Assembly: GCA_036845805.1 (NCBI GenBank) | Contig: DAIUDD010000001.1 | Span: forward strand, 628-64,627 | From: Patescibacteria group bacterium | GTDB taxonomy: Bacteria; Patescibacteriota; Patescibacteriia; UBA2196 | Reading direction: 5' to 3' | DNA length: 64,000 nt | Shown: one piece after another, positions 13,080-60,158 of the stretch | Numbering within the stretch: position 1 is the first letter of the stretch | How the letters are laid out: every line of letters begins with the position of its first letter | The notes under the pieces: generated by a model | What the model was told of the DNA's origin: nothing | The model's database searches: none | What the model saw: the letters and a program-made list of their open reading frames with translations, nothing else | Position numbers and translations under genes: made by a program

Positions 13080-13253
13080 AATGTATTATGATTTTTGTAG
13101 GGGTGGGTTTAAAACCCACCCTTTTGTTTTTATCAATATTTCAATATTTTATTTGTAGAGACAAAAAATTTTTGCCCTCCTTGCTCCATTTTTATTGAAG
13201 GCGGGGTTCCGGAACCCCGCCTTCACAACAGGACAGCTCCAGAGCCGCTCTAC

Positions 13254-13280: not shown

Positions 13281-13350
13281 CCGCCGTCTGGCAGGTAGAC
13301 CGGATTTTTTTAAAGCTTGACAAAAAAAACGCTTATGCTAAGATAGTTTT

Positions 13351-13548
13351 AGAAAGATTTTTAAAAAGGCACATCGTCCCAGCGGGTGTGTGCTAGTACT
13401 GCGAACAGCTGGGTATGGGACAGAGGTAGCCTTACTCTGCTCCAGAACGGCTATAAGGCTGCAGCCCGTCTAAGGTGTGCCCTTGCTGGACGGGAATAAG
13501 ATGGCGCGGCACAACGCCCAGGCGAAACATGCCTGGGCTTTTTTTATT
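13351..13548 (+). ncRNA. Candidate structured small RNA (~200 nt, GC-rich) with its own promoter and intrinsic terminator; identity unknown
   Basis: Promoter ttgaca-16-taagat at 13317-13344. Multiple internal hairpins (ggctgcagcc, gggacagagg/ctctgctcc, cgtcccagc/gctggacg). Terminator cccaggcgaaacatgcctggg plus T7 at 13516-13546. No ORF. Confidence 0.45.
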
Positions 13549-33555: not shown

Positions 33556-33680
33556 CCAAGAAACAAATAAATTCCAACAATCAAATCACAATAAAAGATA
33601 TTTTGGCAATAATAATTTGGTCATTGTTTATTGAAAATTATTTGGAAATTGTATCTTGGAAATTGGAAATTATTTTAAAA
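33541..33680. repeat. AT-rich palindromic intergenic repeat, copy 2
   Basis: tccaagatacaataaccaagaaacaaataaattccaacaa...ttatttggaaattgtatcttggaaattggaaatt overlaps the last codons of the pseudouridine synthase ORF. Confidence 0.55.
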
Positions 33681-33681
33681 T

Positions 33682-34137
33682 ATGTATCTTTATCTTAACA
33701 CCACCGACCATAATTTTATTCATCTGGCCCTAATTAAACCCACTGGCCAGATTTTAGTGACCAAAAAAATTTCTGCGCCCTATCAGCAGTCAGAAAAATT
33801 ATTACTTAATATTCAAAAAATTTTAACCAGCGCCAAATTTCCCTTAACAAAAATCGCGGGCATAATTGTAATCAAAGGACCCGGTGGCTTTACTTCCTTG
33901 CGCATTGGTCTTGGTGTGGCCAACGCCTTGGCCTGGTCCTTACAAATTCCGATTGTGGGCGTGGAGTCAAAGTGTCAGAGTGTCAAAGTGTCAAAGTGTC
34001 AGGGTTTGTCCGCCAAATTGATGGACGAAGATAAACTTATTAGACAAGGACTACTTAAATTAAAAAAAACAAAATATTTCAAACCAATTATGCCAAAATA
34101 TGGCAGTGAACCGCATATTACTATCAAAAATAAATAA
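33682..34137 (+). CDS. tsaB: tRNA threonylcarbamoyladenosine biosynthesis protein TsaB, with in-frame tandem heptamer repeat
   Basis: IKGPGGFTSLRIGLGVANALAWSLQIPIVGV. Then (agtgtca)x5 at 33966-34004 encodes SKCQSVKVSKCQ. Confidence 0.75.
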   Translation: MYLYLNTTDHNFIHLALIKPTGQILVTKKISAPYQQSEKLLLNIQKILTSAKFPLTKIAGIIVIKGPGGFTSLRIGLGVANALAWSLQIPIVGVESKCQSVKVSKCQGLSAKLMDEDKLIRQGLLKLKKTKYFKPIMPKYGSEPHITIKNK

Positions 34138-34249
34138 TTATAGAAATTATTTTCAGATTAACTTGAATTTAATTTTTGTCCGTATTTCTTGTCAGGTTTT
34201 ATTGTTTTTCACTTGACCATTTGTATTGTTTTGCTAAAATAAAAAATAT

Positions 34250-34595
34250 TTATTGAGTAGGCTGGGGACAAAAACATTCCTCTGATGAAGCTTTCAGGGC
34301 CAATTAGTGCCAAAACCGGAGGGAGGAATGTTCCCCAGCACTATTTAATATCACAGGTGTAGCTCAATGTCAGAGCCGTTGACTGGTAGTAGCCAATTGG
34401 TTAGTGGTTCGAATCAACTTGCCCACTCAAAACCGCCATCTAAACAGGATGGCATACCGGGTGTGGCCCACTCTTAACTTAGGTCCGGGGTCGCCGAGAT
34501 ATAATGCAACAAATAACCCCTTTTTACGAGTGAGAGTGTGGCCACACCATTTTTTCAGCCCGATCTCAACACCGAGACGGGCTTTTTATTTTTTA
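34250..34595 (+). ncRNA. Candidate ~345-nt GC-rich structured RNA upstream of secD; class unresolved
   Basis: Promoter ttgacc-16-taaaat at 34213-34240. Long hairpin gctggggac...cattcctc / gagggaggaatgttccccagc. A T-arm-like ggttcgaatc but no complete cloverleaf. Terminator cccgatctcaacaccgagacggg plus T-tract near 34590. Confidence 0.35.
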
Positions 34596-34650
34596 ATTTC
34601 TCTAATATTTTATTCCTTTAGTCCTCTATTTTTTTCTTCTCTGTGTTTTT

Positions 34651-34705
34651 ATTCTTAAATCACCTGCCCGCTATCGCTACGCTCAAGCGTTGCTGGCGGG
34701 TAAAT
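34651..34705 (+). repeat. Conserved GC-rich box, copy 1; identical copy at 38856-38910
   Basis: cttaaatcacctgcccgctatcgctacgctcaagcgttgctggcgggtaaat is identical in both copies, each about 75-100 bp upstream of a start codon (secD and ORF 38963). Confidence 0.75.
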
Positions 34706-34778
34706 CTTAAATCTTTTCTCTCTTTTGTCTTACTATTTGACACATTTTTGCCTTTATTCTAAAATATAAGTAATCTTT

Positions 34779-36464
34779 ATGAATTTATCTCAAGCAACTA
34801 AAACTCGCTATAAATTAGCAGCTATTTTTGTCTTAGCTGTTTTTTGCGCACTGGTTGTTTATCCAAAAGTTCCGGCTGGGACGCCGTTGGAGAGTTTTTG
34901 GAATAAGACTAAATTTAAGCTCGGCCTAGATTTACAAGGTGGCGCTCATTTAGTTTTTCAAGCCGATACTTCACAAATTGATGCTCGGGATCAAGCTTCG
35001 GCTGTGGCTGGCACACGCGATGTCATTGAAAAACGCGTTAATGCTTTTGGTGTATCCGAACCAGTGGTGCAAACTAATCAAGTTGGCGACAGCTATCGCG
35101 TTATTGTGGAGTTGGCTGGTGTTAAAGATGTTAAAGAAGCTATTAAATCCATTGGCGAAATGCCCCTTTTGGAATTTAAGGAATTAAATCCAGAACAAAA
35201 AACAACCTTAACCCCAGAAGAAACTAAACAATTGGAAGAATATAATAACAATGCCAAAAAGAAAGCGGAAGAAATTTTAGCCCAAACCCTAAAACCAGGT
35301 GCTGATTTTAATCAGCTTGCCATTCAATACTCCGAAGACGAAGGTTCCAAAAACAGCGGTGGTGATTTGGGTTTTGCTAAACCCGGCATGTTTGTCACCG
35401 AATTTAATGATGTTATTTTTAATAAACAAAAAAACCCTGGCATTTATCCGCAAATTGTGCAAACCCAGTTTGGTTATCATATTATTAAAAAAATCGCCAC
35501 GCGCGGGGAAGGGGAGAATCTGGAAGTTAATGCCGCGCACATTTTAATTAAAACCAAATCTGAAACCGATTATCAACAATTAGATCAATGGTTAAATACT
35601 AAGCTTTCCGGCCGTCATCTAAAACGCTCCGAAGTGCAATTTGATCAAAACTCTGGCGAACCGCAAGTTGGTTTGGAATTTAATGATGAAGGCAAGGATC
35701 TGTTTGCTGACATTACCACCAGAAATGTGGGTAAACCTGTCGCCATTTTTTTAGACGGCGAAGCCATTTCTGTGCCCAATGTTAATGAACCAATTAAAGA
35801 GGGGCGAGCTGTTATTTCTGGTCGTTTTAATATTAAAGAAGCTAAACAACTGGTTGAACGTCTCAACGCCGGCGCCTTGCCTGTGCCAATTACTTTAATT
35901 TCCCAAGAAACCGTGGGCGCTTCTTTGGGTCAAGAATCTCTCGATAAAAGTTTGTTTGCTGGTTTGATTGGCATTTTAGCCGTGGCTCTTTTTATGATTA
36001 TTTTTTATCGCTTACCTGGTTTAATGGCCGTCATCGCCTTGGCTGTTTATGCTTTGATTAACTTGGCAATTTTTCAATTATTTTCCATTACTCTAACTTT
36101 GGCTGGTATTGCTGGTTTTGTTTTATCGGTCGGCATGGCTGTTGACGCCAATGTCTTAATTTTTGAGCGCTTAAAAGAAGAACTCCGCCATGGCCGCGAA
36201 TTAACCTCGGCTATTGATGAGGGTTTTAAACGCGCTTGGACTTCTATTCGTGATTCTAATATTTCTTCTTTAATTACCTGTGTCATTTTATATTGGATTG
36301 GCTCTTCCATGGTCAAGGGTTTTGCTTTGACCTTATTTATTGGTATTGTTGTTTCTTTGTTTTCAGCCATTACCGTTACCAGAATTTTATTAAAAATTTT
36401 GGTCGGTAAAAGTTTAAAAGAAAAAAAATGGCTCTTTGGCATCCATCAACATAATACTGCCTAA
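34779..36464 (+). CDS. secD: Protein translocase subunit SecD with an inserted parvulin-type PPIase-like domain
   Basis: C-terminal SecD TM bundle (GASLGQESL...LTLAGIAGFVLSVGMAVDANVLIFERL). The periplasmic segment DFNQLAIQYSEDEGSKNSGGDLGFAKPGMFVTEFNDVIFN...QFGYHIIKK resembles a PpiC/PrsA rotamase domain. Confidence 0.8.
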   Translation: MNLSQATKTRYKLAAIFVLAVFCALVVYPKVPAGTPLESFWNKTKFKLGLDLQGGAHLVFQADTSQIDARDQASAVAGTRDVIEKRVNAFGVSEPVVQTNQVGDSYRVIVELAGVKDVKEAIKSIGEMPLLEFKELNPEQKTTLTPEETKQLEEYNNNAKKKAEEILAQTLKPGADFNQLAIQYSEDEGSKNSGGDLGFAKPGMFVTEFNDVIFNKQKNPGIYPQIVQTQFGYHIIKKIATRGEGENLEVNAAHILIKTKSETDYQQLDQWLNTKLSGRHLKRSEVQFDQNSGEPQVGLEFNDEGKDLFADITTRNVGKPVAIFLDGEAISVPNVNEPIKEGRAVISGRFNIKEAKQLVERLNAGALPVPITLISQETVGASLGQESLDKSLFAGLIGILAVALFMIIFYRLPGLMAVIALAVYALINLAIFQLFSITLTLAGIAGFVLSVGMAVDANVLIFERLKEELRHGRELTSAIDEGFKRAWTSIRDSNISSLITCVILYWIGSSMVKGFALTLFIGIVVSLFSAITVTRILLKILVGKSLKEKKWLFGIHQHNTA

Positions 36465-38754: not shown

Positions 38755-38855
38755 TTAACATGGCTGCCGAGCAATCGGTGTCTTTTCTATTTAATATTTT
38801 TGAAGGCGAGGTTCCAGAACCTCGCCTTCATTGTTTATTAGCCATCTATTCTTAA

Positions 38856-38910
38856 ATCTTAAATCACCTGCCCGCTATCGCTACGCTCAAGCGTTGCTGG
38901 CGGGTAAATT
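38856..38910 (+). repeat. Conserved GC-rich box, copy 2
   Basis: Identical 51-mer to 34651-34705; a palindrome gaaggcgaggttccagaacctcgccttc lies just upstream at 38806-38833. Confidence 0.75.
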
Positions 38911-38962
38911 TTAGATTTTTCTCTTGTTTTTATTTTAATGTTTTTATGTTATAATATTAACT

Positions 38963-40402
38963 ATGGAAATACTCCTAAATTATTTATCCAATTGGGGACT
39001 GAAAAGCGATAATCCTTGGGATGTTTTTGCTTTTATTTTTACCCACGGTGGTTTTATTTTGGTTTTTTGGGTTTTAATTACTGGGTTTATGCTTGTTTGG
39101 TTAGAATGGCGCCAGGGAAAATTTTCTAGTCAGTTAAAATGGGTTTATCTGGCCATTGATGTCCCGCGCAATAACGAACAATCTCCCAAGGCAGTGGAGC
39201 AAATTTTTAATCAACTTTGGGGTATTATTAAAGGCCCAACTTTTGTCGAAAAATGGCTTGATGGTTATGGCCAGGTTAATTATAGTCTAGAATTAGTTTC
39301 CATTGATGGTTACGTGCAATTTGTTATCAGGTGTCTAGCTGGTGTCAGAGATGTGGTCGAGGCTGCTATTTATGCCCAATACCCTGAAGCACAGATTACT
39401 GAAATTGAAGATTATGCGAAAAATTTTACACCAGATAATTTTAAAGAATTGGGTTATGATTTATGGGGCGCGCAAATTGGCATTATTAAAGACGAAATGT
39501 ATCCCATTCGCACTTACCCTGTTTTTGAACACGCCATTACTAAAACCAAAGAATCAATTGGTATTATCGATCCCCTGGCCGCGCTTTTAGAAATTTTTAG
39601 CCGTTTTAATAAAGGTGAACAAGGTTGGTTGCAAATTACCATTCGACCAGTCGATGATTCTTGGAAAGAAAAGTGTTTAAAAGAAGTTCAAAAAATAATT
39701 GGTGCTCCTACTAAACCGCCAGCGCCGGGTTTGGTTGATCAGTTGCTAGACATGCCGGTTTCTGCGGTTAGTAAATTTGCTGATCAAATGTTTATTCCCG
39801 CTTCTGTTAAAAGTGACGAAAAAAAACAAGACGTACCTTCCAAAATGTTATATTTATCACCGGGTGAAAGACAGACAGTTGAAGCCATTGATAATAAAGC
39901 CACCAAAACCGGTTTCAAAGCGAAAATTCGTTATATTTATCTCTATAAAAAAGAGGTTGGTAATAAATCAAAGGGTGTTTCGGGAGTAATGGGGGCGCTT
40001 AAACAATTCAGTGCTCTAAATTCTAATGGATTTAAACCGCTTGGACCAACCGTCACCAATTCTAATCTTATTTTTAAATCTTTGCGTGAAAAAAAGAAGC
40101 TTGAATTACAGAGAAAAATTTTAAAATCTTATAAATCGAGAAGTTCGGGTTCCGGCATTAGCGAGAAAGGTTATTTTATTTTAAACACGGAAGAACTAGC
40201 TACTCTTTATCACTTTCCCTATAAGGGCGTGGCTGGCACTTCGGTCAAGGCTGTTAGCGCTAAGCGAGCCGAAGCGCCTTATACTTTGCCTTATGACGAG
40301 GAAAAAGAAGAGACAAAATCGAATAGCGCTCCCACGGTTAATAAAGCAGACAATCTGGGCGTAGCTGATAAGTTGTCAGCACCAGATAATTTACCCATGT
40401 AA
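38963..40402 (+). CDS. Membrane-anchored hypothetical protein (479 aa)
   Basis: N-terminal TM hairpin then a large soluble domain with no recognisable motif; located 9 bp upstream of a TraG/VirD4-like ATPase gene. Confidence 0.35.
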   Translation: MEILLNYLSNWGLKSDNPWDVFAFIFTHGGFILVFWVLITGFMLVWLEWRQGKFSSQLKWVYLAIDVPRNNEQSPKAVEQIFNQLWGIIKGPTFVEKWLDGYGQVNYSLELVSIDGYVQFVIRCLAGVRDVVEAAIYAQYPEAQITEIEDYAKNFTPDNFKELGYDLWGAQIGIIKDEMYPIRTYPVFEHAITKTKESIGIIDPLAALLEIFSRFNKGEQGWLQITIRPVDDSWKEKCLKEVQKIIGAPTKPPAPGLVDQLLDMPVSAVSKFADQMFIPASVKSDEKKQDVPSKMLYLSPGERQTVEAIDNKATKTGFKAKIRYIYLYKKEVGNKSKGVSGVMGALKQFSALNSNGFKPLGPTVTNSNLIFKSLREKKKLELQRKILKSYKSRSSGSGISEKGYFILNTEELATLYHFPYKGVAGTSVKAVSAKRAEAPYTLPYDEEKEETKSNSAPTVNKADNLGVADKLSAPDNLPM

Positions 40403-59295: not shown

Positions 59296-59494
59296 TATCC
59301 TTGCCTTTTGAAGGCGGGGTAGGGGGTTTATTTTAAAATAAAACACCGCCCCGACAAATGTTGTCGGGACGGTCAAACTCATTTCATGTATGCGGGTGTG
59401 GCAGAAATGTCACAGCCCGTCTCCACCTCTTCCATGGGCTTAATGATTCCTGCCCACAAAAAAAATCGGCAAAGGCGGAGTCGAAATTTTTTTC

Positions 59495-60029: not shown

Positions 60030-60158
60030 ATGGAAGACAAATGTGTTGTTTGTGAAGTTGAGTTGCATGATGGCAACACTTGTTCTTGTCACCCAGACCA
60101 TTGTAAGGATTGTTGCTCTTGCGAGCCAGATTGTGGTTGTGGCTGCAAACCAGAATAG
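60030..60158 (+). CDS. Cys-rich 42-aa peptide (metallothionein-like), unannotated in ORF track
   Basis: MEDKCVVCEVELHDGNTCSCHPDHCKDCCSCEPDCGCGCKPE has 12 Cys in 42 residues, in CxxC, CxC and CC motifs. It starts 39 nt after tRNA-Pro. Confidence 0.4.
   Translation: MEDKCVVCEVELHDGNTCSCHPDHCKDCCSCEPDCGCGCKPE

Follow-up and report, generated by a model that had tools for sequence, protein, structure and literature searches.

A GC-rich structured block with a tRNA-Asn-derived core in the tsaB-secD spacer of a Patescibacteria bacterium, a candidate small RNA

The tsaB-secD spacer of an uncultured Patescibacteria (CPR) bacterium contains a GC-rich block of about 345 nt, at positions 34250-34595 of the window (the whole 64-kb stretch of DNA that was analysed). 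It appears to be a separate, structured transcription unit that does not code for protein and is flanked by a promoter and a terminator of its own, and we read its middle part as the fossil of a tRNA-Asn(GUU) gene between two long hairpins. The preferred interpretation is tentative and is credited with not quite an even chance: the block may encode a young, lineage-specific, tRNA-derived structured sRNA, which would stand alone and act in trans as a stable RNA. Its transcription, its stability and any trans-acting role we only infer. The features described in a sequence-only reading of this DNA were all found where it had placed them or nearby, and its proposal of a tmRNA or an RNase P RNA is not borne out.

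The GC content of the block is 45-54% in 100-nt windows across 34250-34549, compared with 21-32% in the flanking spacer and 37% (0.371) in the whole window. The predicted primary transcript (34247..34592, plus strand) is about 345 nt long, has a GC content of about 47%, and lacks a credible ORF. The minimum free energy of the block is -129.4 kcal/mol, and none of 100 shuffled sequences was equally stable. The z score of the fold is -6.5 on the plus strand versus -5.0 on the minus strand, and the GC-rich structured block of this size proposed earlier for the spacer is thus present. The neighbouring genes encode DHH, ClpP, RluB-like, TsaB, SecD, SecF, a sigma-70-type factor, and DUF8128.

The block is preceded by the near-consensus sigma-70 promoter P1 (34213..34240, plus strand), which matches 10 of 12 positions. 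It consists of the -35 element TTGACC (34213-34218), a 16-nt spacer, and the -10 element TAAAAT (34235-34240), just as the earlier reading had it; the -10 element is in addition extended by TG, and transcription is predicted to start near 34247. The stretch 34218-34244 of P1 is 70% identical to 34743-34769, which lies within the secD promoter (repeat D1), and P1 therefore looks like a duplicate of that promoter. The secD promoter P2 (34737..34765, plus strand) lies outside the RNA and comprises TTGACA, a 17-nt spacer, and TAAAAT, with 11 of 12 matches. It is located 14 nt upstream of the secD ATG (34779) and delimits the inserted block on its right-hand side. The block ends in an intrinsic terminator (34557..34595, plus strand), in which a stem at 34557-34583 is followed by a U-tract. 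The stem arms are AGCCCG.UCUC and GAGACGGGCU, followed by UUUUUAUUUUUU. Its fold has an energy of -16 kcal/mol and a z score of -5.5, with a structure frequency of 0.86 in the ensemble, which agrees with the terminator and T-tract claimed before.

A terminator upstream of secD, on the same strand, is reminiscent of riboswitch expression platforms, and the block could be a cis-acting secDF leader (a riboswitch, an attenuator, or a T-box-like element) that terminates at 34557-34595. The near-consensus P2 between the terminator and secD argues against such a leader, as does the lack of a long leader in the relatives. Neither a riboswitch nor a T-box was matched by Rfam in 34100-34800, even at E<=10, and a leader of this kind is considered very improbable. 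By the same arrangement the block is autonomous from secD, which has its own 11/12 promoter downstream of the terminator, and the relatives have only that promoter; both points favour the stand-alone sRNA.

The block might instead encode a small protein, since ORFs exist in it: an 84-aa ORF (34404-34658, GTG start) and mini-ORFs of 22-38 aa. The 84-aa ORF has no ribosome-binding site, runs through the terminator, and owes its Phe/Ser tail to the poly-T tract. Five ORFs were scanned, the 84-aa one and four of the shorter ones, and all lack a match in Pfam; among 1.84 billion representative proteins the 84-aa ORF matches only repetitive, low-complexity sequences. The public contig has no gene called here. 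The earlier doubt about ORF 34404-34658 as a protein was well placed, and a coding function is judged extremely improbable.

The tRNA-Asn(GUU)-derived core (34353..34427, plus strand) is recognised by a sub-threshold Rfam match, by blastn, and by full-length alignment. The Rfam tRNA match covers 34356-34423 and scores 23.2 bits against a gathering score of 29, with an E value of 0.025 in a 701-nt search of 34100-34800. The sequence GGTTCGAATC at 34407-34416, which had been noticed as T-arm-like, lies within this match and is truly tRNA-related. In full-length alignment the core is 71-74% identical to two tRNA-Asn genes, and 36-59% identical to the tRNA-Gly, Pro, Ile, and Val genes of the window; its identity to the L066 tRNA is 39%. 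The blastn matches of the core have 77-81% identity, and the best ones in the phage database are annotated tRNA-Asn. Those in the plasmid database cover the same stretch of the core and are located in unannotated DNA. The core retains the D-arm (GCUC/GAGC), the anticodon stem (GUUG/CAAU), the variable region (UGGUU), and the T-loop (GGUUCGAAUC). The similarity thus extends over the full length of the core, taking in the anticodon stem and the variable region, and is specific to tRNA-Asn.

The functional determinants of a tRNA are broken. The loop at the anticodon position, CUGGUAGUAG, has about 10-12 nt and lacks GUU, while the tRNA-Asn counterpart is CUGUUAA. The D-loop is AAUGUCA, so that G19 is lost, and a G52.A62 mismatch is present. 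The acceptor has only four pairs, two of which are G.U, and UCAA takes the place of the CCA. A single transition would restore a Watson-Crick pair at each of the three acceptor mismatches, a pattern consistent with G-to-A decay. The cloverleaf has an energy of -3.3 kcal/mol, compared with -18.4 kcal/mol for the minimum free energy structure, so that the alternative fold, an extended hairpin rich in wobble pairs, is better by 15 kcal/mol. ARAGORN reported no tRNA at its default threshold, at 90%, or at 85% with introns; at 80% it gave only a 90-base 'tRNA-Trp' artefact at 34301-34390, which is not the cloverleaf of the core. A functional tRNA was rejected on the sub-gathering score, the four-pair acceptor, the missing anticodon, G19, and CCA, and the unstable cloverleaf. 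Because the anticodon, a 7-bp acceptor, the CCA, and a stable cloverleaf are all missing, the core could not act as a tRNA. It records the origin of the block rather than a present activity.

The block may also be a neutral relic. According to this explanation, a copy of a tRNA-Asn gene with flanking palindromes and a terminator was inserted into a variable intergenic slot, the secD promoter was duplicated on insertion, and the insert is now decaying; it may be transcribed and still be functionless. A relic is nearly as likely as the sRNA, and we give it roughly one chance in three. Every functional determinant has been lost from the tRNA part, in which the cloverleaf is much worse than the alternative fold, and the acceptor mismatches fit G-to-A decay. 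The resemblance of P1 to P2 would follow from the duplication. A terminator normally comes along with tRNA genes, and its presence here is expected on general grounds. The block is absent from all relatives examined, in which the slot is empty or holds orphan small ORFs or another odd tRNA.

The hairpins on either side of the core count against a relic. Hairpin H1 (34251..34350, plus strand) has an energy of -42.7 kcal/mol and a z score of -5.1, and none of 200 shuffled sequences was as stable. It is the long imperfect hairpin that the sequence-only reading had placed at 34261-34342, and it is real and slightly longer. Its stem of about 26 bp (10+8+8 bp) pairs 34251-34281 with 34324-34350 and is interrupted by an internal loop of 5 nt and by a single bulged base. 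At the top of H1 is a three-way junction with CUGAUGA and two mini-hairpins. Hairpin H3 (34460..34548, plus strand) has an energy of -38.6 kcal/mol and a z score of -4.0. Its stem of 9+8+3 bp has a single bulged base and an inner helix of 5 bp, and it exposes a 24-nt A-rich single-stranded loop at 34492-34515. The prediction of loop-only pairing for this loop gave one marginal complementarity lead, to an element at 1955-1990 and 33636-33670. The small hairpin H2 (34435..34453, plus strand) pairs GCCAUCU with GGAUGGC around the loop AAACA. In the minimum free energy structure, H2 and the core share one multiloop, which is closed by 34356-34360 with 34454-34458, and together they have an energy of -32.1 kcal/mol and a z score of -2.2.

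Both long stems pair almost perfectly and are GC-rich within AT-richer DNA, whereas the tRNA part carries at least eight disabling changes, which suggests that the hairpins are either maintained or recent. Had neutral decay lasted until the tRNA was ruined, the stems should also have been eroded, unless these arose by recent inverted duplication. H1 has two G.U pairs, for which the minus-strand equivalents are A.C, and as the imperfections in the helices of H1 and H3 are G.U on the plus strand and not A.C, a constraint on RNA rather than on DNA fits. This is a further point against a relic.

Two other readings of H1 were tried and rejected. The CUGAUGA at 34282-34288, located in a three-way junction, is suggestive of a hammerhead ribozyme; its partner strand is CAAAAC, without GAAA/G12, and Rfam gave no hammerhead match at E<=10 in 34100-34800. 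The apex of H1 as a second tRNA fragment is unsupported by shuffles (p 0.25-0.47).

No homologue of the block was found in 63 CPR secD loci with nhmmer and blastn, or with blastn at the loci that encode the nearest relatives of TsaB and SecD. A covariance model built from the single H1 sequence matched only H1 itself over 466 kb of CPR loci. The phage and plasmid databases contain only generic tRNA-Asn similarity to the block, and pattern scans of viral contigs gave random or tRNA matches only. A metagenome scan with a D-loop and T-loop pattern found four unrelated matches in a collection that apparently does not hold the contig of the window. In the same species, which occurs in samples such as JGI 3300025871 and 3300025882, 12-13 contigs have these genes, and those read were identical across the part of the spacer that they cover; no variants at >=90% were present in the 90% protein clusters. 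Among the closest relatives, the tsaB-secD slot is either just a short spacer or is taken up by small orphan ORFs or by an odd tRNA, and the relatives with a short spacer have only a terminator and a P2-type promoter before secD. Conservation upstream of secD, which had been named as a check on the proposed ncRNA, is thus lacking, the block being absent in every relative examined. Since no family matches at threshold and the relatives examined lack the block, a conserved housekeeping ncRNA fails as an explanation, and a species-specific, tRNA-derived element would remain.

In the closest relative, whose TsaB is 72% identical, the contigs Ga0116242_10055884 and Ga0209311_1114424 both stop in this slot, at an odd tRNA that has an anticodon loop of 6 nt.

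A variable slot would also suit a scar or a non-autonomous mobile-element remnant, from an element such as a tRNA-targeting integrative element or a MITE/PATE-like palindrome, in which the hairpins would be DNA-level ends for recombination or transposition. This is an unlikely reading. The relatives have a hot spot of accessory DNA at this slot, and the contigs that stop at the odd tRNA are in keeping with such an element. Short direct repeats (GCCCACUC) are present at 34421 and 34466 in addition to the promoter duplication, and a 69-nt repeat adjoins the block. Against this, H1, the tRNA-derived core, and H3 each have a single copy in the 64-kb window, with no paralogue found there and no copy in the 466 kb of related loci. 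There is no integrase or transposase among the neighbouring genes, the internal repeats do not stand out from shuffled sequences (p 0.25-0.47), and viral contigs, phages, and plasmids yield only the generic tRNA-Asn similarity. A direct repeat of the tRNA 3' end at 34658 was considered as an att scar and is unsupported by shuffles (p 0.25-0.47); it lies in the 69-nt repeat, which also occurs at 38857, away from any tRNA.

The size of about 345 nt, the T-loop-like GGUUCGAAUC, and the absence of both RNAs elsewhere in the window (Rfam at gathering score, ARAGORN) had led to the proposal that the block is a tmRNA or an RNase P RNA, possibly in a divergent CPR form. The absence elsewhere holds. 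The proposal itself is effectively refuted and retains next to no probability. At the gathering score, Rfam found only five ordinary tRNAs over the whole window, and nothing relevant at E<=1. In 34100-34800, a search at E<=10 with permissive filters returned the sub-threshold tRNA match and noise, and the suggested check against tmRNA, RNase P, SRP, and riboswitch models was negative.

For tmRNA, none of the standard, alpha, beta, cyano, and mt models matched 34100-34800 at E<=10. The tRNA-like part forms one uninterrupted stretch (34356-34423), with the D-arm, the anticodon arm, and the T-arm in normal order, and is not split between the 5' and 3' ends. G3.U70, CCA, a 7-bp acceptor, and a tag frame are all absent. 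ARAGORN was negative in tmRNA mode at default and relaxed (80-90%) thresholds, and at 60% it gave only a minus-strand 'permuted tmRNA' artefact with a 30-aa non-tag peptide and the remark 'Tag not identified'. The sequence-only reading had itself seen neither a tag frame nor an acceptor stem, which accords with the negative ARAGORN result and the four-pair acceptor.

The Rfam models of RNase P RNA likewise had no match at E<=10, and none in the window at gathering score. For the P4 motif CR-I (GAGGAAAGUCC), the candidate in the block is GAGGAATGTTC at 34323, with two mismatches. The window contains seven such matches versus 9.7 expected, and the word at 34323 pairs locally in H1. No word like CR-V (ACAGAAnnnGGCUUA) occurs in the region. 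The earlier failure to match the P4 motifs therefore stands, the P4 words being at chance level. In addition, neither the minimum free energy nor the centroid structure of the block has a 5'/3' closing helix, and close relatives, which also need these essential RNAs, have nothing at the slot. SRP and 6S RNA were rejected too, as a helix-8 motif and an Rfam match are lacking.

Compared with known systems, the block shares with tmRNA (SsrA) a similar length, the T-loop consensus, and its own promoter and terminator, but has no alanine identity pair, CCA, tag ORF, pseudoknot ring, or tRNA part formed by the two ends. Bacterial RNase P RNA is similar in size, in its GC-rich structured character, and in the GAGGAA-like word at 34323, whereas the block has no P4 partner, CR-V, or P1 closing helix, and GAGGAAUGUUC is the 3' arm of H1. 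The bacterial Y RNA-like A, YrlA, is a tRNA-mimicking ncRNA, and its genes adjoin Ro60 (rsr) (PMC4201824). Like the block, YrlA is non-coding, has a few hundred nucleotides or less, and carries a tRNA-like D-arm/T-loop module beside other helices (PMC4201824). The tRNA-like domain of YrlA has a tRNA fold and is a substrate of tRNA enzymes (PMC4201824), while the cloverleaf of the block is thermodynamically disfavoured. The block also lacks the terminal Ro-binding stem and an Rfam match, and a TROVE/Ro60 gene is absent among its neighbours.

Bacterial tRNA pseudogenes and remnants in intergenic regions and integration hot spots resemble the block in having a recognisable tRNA copy (here tRNA-Asn), broken determinants, and a variable slot. 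They differ in that the core lies within a larger, very stable GC-rich unit with a promoter and a terminator, which a bare pseudogene would lack. Orphan species-specific intergenic sRNAs are similar in their arrangement of a sigma-70 promoter, a structured RNA, and an intrinsic terminator, with no conservation beyond the species and no ORF. The block is unusually long and unusually stable in comparison, and contains a tRNA fossil.

As an sRNA, the block would have four modules: the 100-nt H1, the tRNA-Asn(GUU)-derived core, the small H2, and the 90-nt H3 with its 24-nt A-rich loop. P1, the apparent duplicate of the secD promoter, would drive the RNA of about 345 nt, which would end at its own intrinsic terminator, and P2, located about 150 nt beyond it, would serve for the expression of secD. 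The ends of the RNA would be protected by H1 and by the terminator hairpin, and the H3 loop would be the most likely interaction surface. Such an sRNA would not be a translation-related housekeeping RNA. Several points weigh against it. The tRNA part has the appearance of neutral decay, the content of the slot varies among relatives, none of the loci and databases searched yielded a homologue, and the same-species contigs that were read are identical. P1 may simply reflect the duplication of a target, and the terminator may have come in as part of a foreign tRNA gene; that these signals of expression are intact need not reflect selection.

A functional RNA specific to the CPR lineage, in which the tRNA-Asn copy was exapted, is a further and unlikely reading. 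Such an RNA might be a decoy encoded on the chromosome, or a sponge, for a factor that recognises the D-arm, anticodon-stem, or T-loop features of the tRNA-Asn type; possible targets would be an anticodon nuclease or toxin, or a modification or transamidation enzyme. It might otherwise be a precursor, in which the tRNA-like core would direct processing into two stable hairpin sRNAs. If a tRNA copy was exapted in this way, the odd tRNA of the closest relative would be a second 'non-decoding tRNA-like gene' kept at the locus.

Within this lineage, the tsaB-secD spacer stands out as an accessory-DNA hot spot. If the block is a relic, it offers a lesson for annotation, since a structured GC-rich block of 345 nt with a promoter, a terminator, and a T-loop can pass for a tmRNA or an RNase P RNA without being either. 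If it is expressed and functional, it would join a very small set of candidate sRNAs, regulatory or structural, that have been described from the Patescibacteria (CPR), which have tiny genomes and a non-coding repertoire that is poorly covered by Rfam. In that case, too, a copy of a tRNA gene would clearly have been reused as part of a larger structured RNA.

The source, an uncultured member of the Patescibacteria (CPR), lies close to Candidatus Kuenenbacteria; its SecD and the SecD from a Kuenenbacteria MAG are 74% identical. Locally, the genes run in the order DHH phosphoesterase, ClpP, RluB-like pseudouridine synthase, and TsaB (33682-34137), then, after a 641-nt spacer, SecD (34779-36464), SecF, and a sigma-70-type factor. 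The JGI contig Ga0209311_1000160 is base-for-base identical to the window across the tsaB-secD spacer and its flanks. At 33966-34001, the octamer GTCAAAGT is repeated in tandem 4.5 times (92% matches) inside the tsaB reading frame, encoding the peptide repeat KCQSVKVSKCQ; the corresponding linkers of relatives' TsaB proteins differ and are non-repetitive.

The spacer comprises a GC-rich structured block (34250-34595, + strand), as the sequence-only reading had described. Its GC content is 0.45-0.54 over 34250-34549 (100-nt windows), compared with 0.21-0.32 in the rest of the spacer and 0.371 in the whole window. The promoter noticed at its start, P1 (TTGACC-16-TAAAAT, 34213-34240), has 10 of 12 matches in a promoter scan and a TG-extended -10, and the terminator seen at its end is a hairpin at 34557-34583 followed by UUUUUAUUUUUU (-16 kcal/mol, z -5.5, 86% of the ensemble). 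The 346 nt of the block have an MFE of -129.4 kcal/mol, and none of 100 shuffles is equally stable. In the MFE fold, the long imperfect hairpin already suspected is H1 (34251-34350), with a stem of about 26 bp, a three-way apex, and z -5.1. A central multiloop (34356-34458) holds the tRNA-like sequence and the 7-bp hairpin H2 (34435-34453). H3 (34460-34548) has an outer stem of about 20 bp, an inner 5-bp helix, a 24-nt A-rich loop, and z -4.0. The imperfect positions of the modelled H1 and H3 stems are G.U on the + strand and, together with the promoter, the terminator, and the fold z-scores (-6.5 on the + strand vs -5.0 on the - strand), point to + as the RNA strand. The assembly of this species in sample 3300025882 breaks inside the 5′ arm of H3 (window ~34484-34487), where contig L065 starts and contig L279 ends; the two ends share a 4-nt overlap and otherwise match the window exactly. 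This break is probably an artefact of coverage or of the hairpin and not a strain variant.

The earlier proposal of tmRNA or RNase P RNA does not agree with the searches. At curated thresholds, Rfam yields five ordinary tRNAs and nothing else across the window; with permissive filters (E<=10), 34100-34800 has no tmRNA, RNase P, SRP, 6S, riboswitch, T-box, ribozyme, or Y-RNA match. ARAGORN reports nothing at default thresholds, and relaxing these to 80-90% brings up no credible gene. With 60%, the only trace of a tag frame is a spurious 'permuted tmRNA' on the minus strand, whose 30-aa tag is unidentifiable. The word GAGGAAUGUUC at 34323 is one of seven two-mismatch matches to the RNase P P4 word in the window, where 9.7 are expected, and forms the 3′ arm of H1; the P4 word search found no CR-V-like word in the block region. 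tmRNA is rejected on Rfam and ARAGORN, and RNase P RNA on Rfam, chance-level P4 words, and the missing CR-V-like word. Membership was also tested and failed for functional tRNA, riboswitch/T-box, and hammerhead. The open reading frame across the block, implausible as a protein on first reading, remains so: its 84-aa product has a GTG start, no ribosome-binding site, and a poly-T-derived tail, and it runs across the terminator. None of the five scanned block ORFs matches Pfam, the three matches of the 84-aa ORF among 1.84 billion representative proteins are all repetitive or low-complexity, and the public contig has no gene call at the block. A protein-coding gene is rejected on the Pfam result, these matches, and the crossing of the terminator. 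A cis leader, a coding gene, and tmRNA or RNase P are all very improbable readings.

The sole family signal in the block is an Rfam tRNA match at 34356-34423 (23.2 bits, below the gathering score of 29), which includes the T-arm-like sequence seen at the outset. Only this tRNA-like stretch was matched by blastn against phages and plasmids, and the listed phage matches are mostly annotated as tRNA-Asn (76-81% identity). In full-length alignments, the core (34353-34427) has 71-74% identity to two tRNA-Asn(GUU) genes, compared with 36-59% to the window's tRNA-Gly, Pro, Ile, and Val. It keeps the D-arm UAGCUCAAUG.CAGAGC, the anticodon stem GUUGA/CAAU, C32-U33-G34, the variable region UGGU, and the T-loop GGUUCGAAUC. 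The GUU anticodon is gone, since the 10-nt loop CUGGUAGUAG replaces the CUGUUAA of tRNA-Asn. G19 is substituted, the T-stem has a G.A mismatch, and CCA is absent 3′ of the core. The acceptor has four pairs left, two of them G.U; the remaining three are A.C or C.A, and a single G-to-A transition separates each from a Watson-Crick pair. The cloverleaf of the 75-nt core has -3.3 kcal/mol, compared with -18.4 for a wobble-rich extended hairpin. The core is a tRNA-Asn fossil, decayed or remodelled, and not a tRNA; it has probably ceased to be a good tRNA mimic.

A check of conservation upstream of secD finds the block absent from all relatives' loci examined. Searches of 63 CPR secD loci by nhmmer and blastn found no homologue, nor did an H1 covariance model run over 466 kb of CPR loci or six patterns scanned against viral contigs. 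The remainder of the window has no second copy, and phage and plasmid records contain nothing past generic tRNA similarity; that the block is the scar of a mobile element is unlikely. One metagenome scan gave four unrelated matches, with the source contig not among them. Those copies from the same species that were read, taken from several samples, show no difference over the covered part of the spacer, and SecD, TsaB, and SecF are without variants in their 90%-identity protein clusters.

In relatives whose SecD is 70-74% identical (L001, L146-L148, L149-L151, L276), the spacers measure 88-172 nt, and those aligned contain only a terminator and the secD promoter. In this slot, loci L002, L068-L070, and L071 have two, one, and three small orphan ORFs, respectively, without a Pfam match and with no more than a single, marginal PHROG match. 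By TsaB, the closest organism (72% identity) is represented by L066 and L067 (contigs Ga0116242_10055884 and Ga0209311_1114424, from two different samples), which both stop at or just past a tRNA (L066:4472-4546, L067:1102-1171). This tRNA lies directly behind a sigma-70-like promoter that directly follows tsaB. It scores 48 bits in Rfam, yet ARAGORN rejects it; its anticodon stem is 5 bp and its 6-nt loop, CUUUAA, is like the Lys-UUU loop minus one U. In L013, a Parcubacteria relative at greater distance, a normal tRNA-Lys(UUU) gene (2710-2785) lies 216 nt upstream of secD, so a tRNA gene adjoining secD is not unique to the window's lineage. Since the relatives' slot is empty or holds orphan ORFs or an odd tRNA, the tsaB-secD slot is a hot spot for accessory DNA, and the block a species-specific insertion. 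P1 (34213-34244) and secD's own promoter P2 (34737-34769) share 27 nt at 70% identity with similar flanks, and each is similar to the relatives' single secD promoter, which suggests duplication of the promoter region upon insertion.

Other features were observed in the window. A repeat of about 69 nt (34653-34721 and 38857-38924, 95.7% identity) holds the hairpin CCTGCCCGC...GGCGGGTA just upstream of the promoters of secD and of a gene that begins at 38963; it may represent a small palindromic intergenic repeat, or else a regulatory site common to the two. A second orphan sRNA candidate (13317-13545, + strand) opens with a promoter (TTGACA-16-TAAGAT with TG, 13317-13344) and closes with a strong terminator (13516-13538 plus T-run); between them is a block of about 190 nt whose GC reaches 0.62. 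ORFs and Rfam matches at E<=10 are both absent, and the fold gains only modestly over shuffles (z -1.7). Near-identical GC-rich terminator-type hairpins (TTGAAGGCGGGGTTCCGGAACCCCGCCTTCA and variants) occur in separate intergenic regions at 13197-13227, 38801-38831, and ~59300-59325. Just downstream of tRNA-Pro, a 42-aa cysteine-rich ORF (MEDKCVVCEVELHDGNTCSCHPDHCKDCCSCEPDCGCGCKPE, 60031-60158, + strand) may encode a metallothionein-like or zinc-ribbon mini-protein; the L068 slot has a different, 86-aa cysteine-rich ORF.

These results establish the block as a stand-alone, predicted non-coding unit, exceptionally structured, built around a tRNA-Asn-derived core, and specific to one species. A neutral relic is only slightly less probable than the sRNA reading given next, and is consistent with the complete lack of conservation, the variable slot, a promoter that may be an insertion by-product, and the decay-like mutations in the tRNA part. 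The terminator is also compatible with a relic, as tRNA genes normally bring their own. Tentatively, the block is read as a young, tRNA-derived, trans-acting structured sRNA. Its promoter and terminator are intact, it is GC-rich inside a window of 37% GC and a spacer that is more AT-rich still, and its long stems are nearly perfect, blemished only by + strand G.U pairs, in contrast to the tRNA part with at least eight disabling changes. In such an sRNA, H1 and the terminator would protect the two RNA ends, and the H3 loop would be the likeliest interaction surface. This loop (34492-34515) has a weak, marginal predicted pairing of 13 bp (3 G.U) plus 7 bp (-21.5 kcal/mol; best of 30 shuffled loops, -20.3) with an element of about 35 nt, TTATTTGGAAATTGTATCTTGG(A/T)AATTGG(A/T)AATT. 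Its two copies, with TTGGAAA-type heptamer repeats, sit just 5′ of a bacterial PH-domain gene (1955-1990) and of tsaB (33636-33670).

The nearest named class of tRNA-mimicking ncRNA is YrlA (PMC4201824), whose Ro60 neighbour, terminal stem, and foldable tRNA-like domain are all missing in the block. Closest in working are orphan intergenic sRNAs and tRNA pseudogene loci. The block is therefore placed with the tRNA-derived, species-specific ncRNAs or pseudogene loci.
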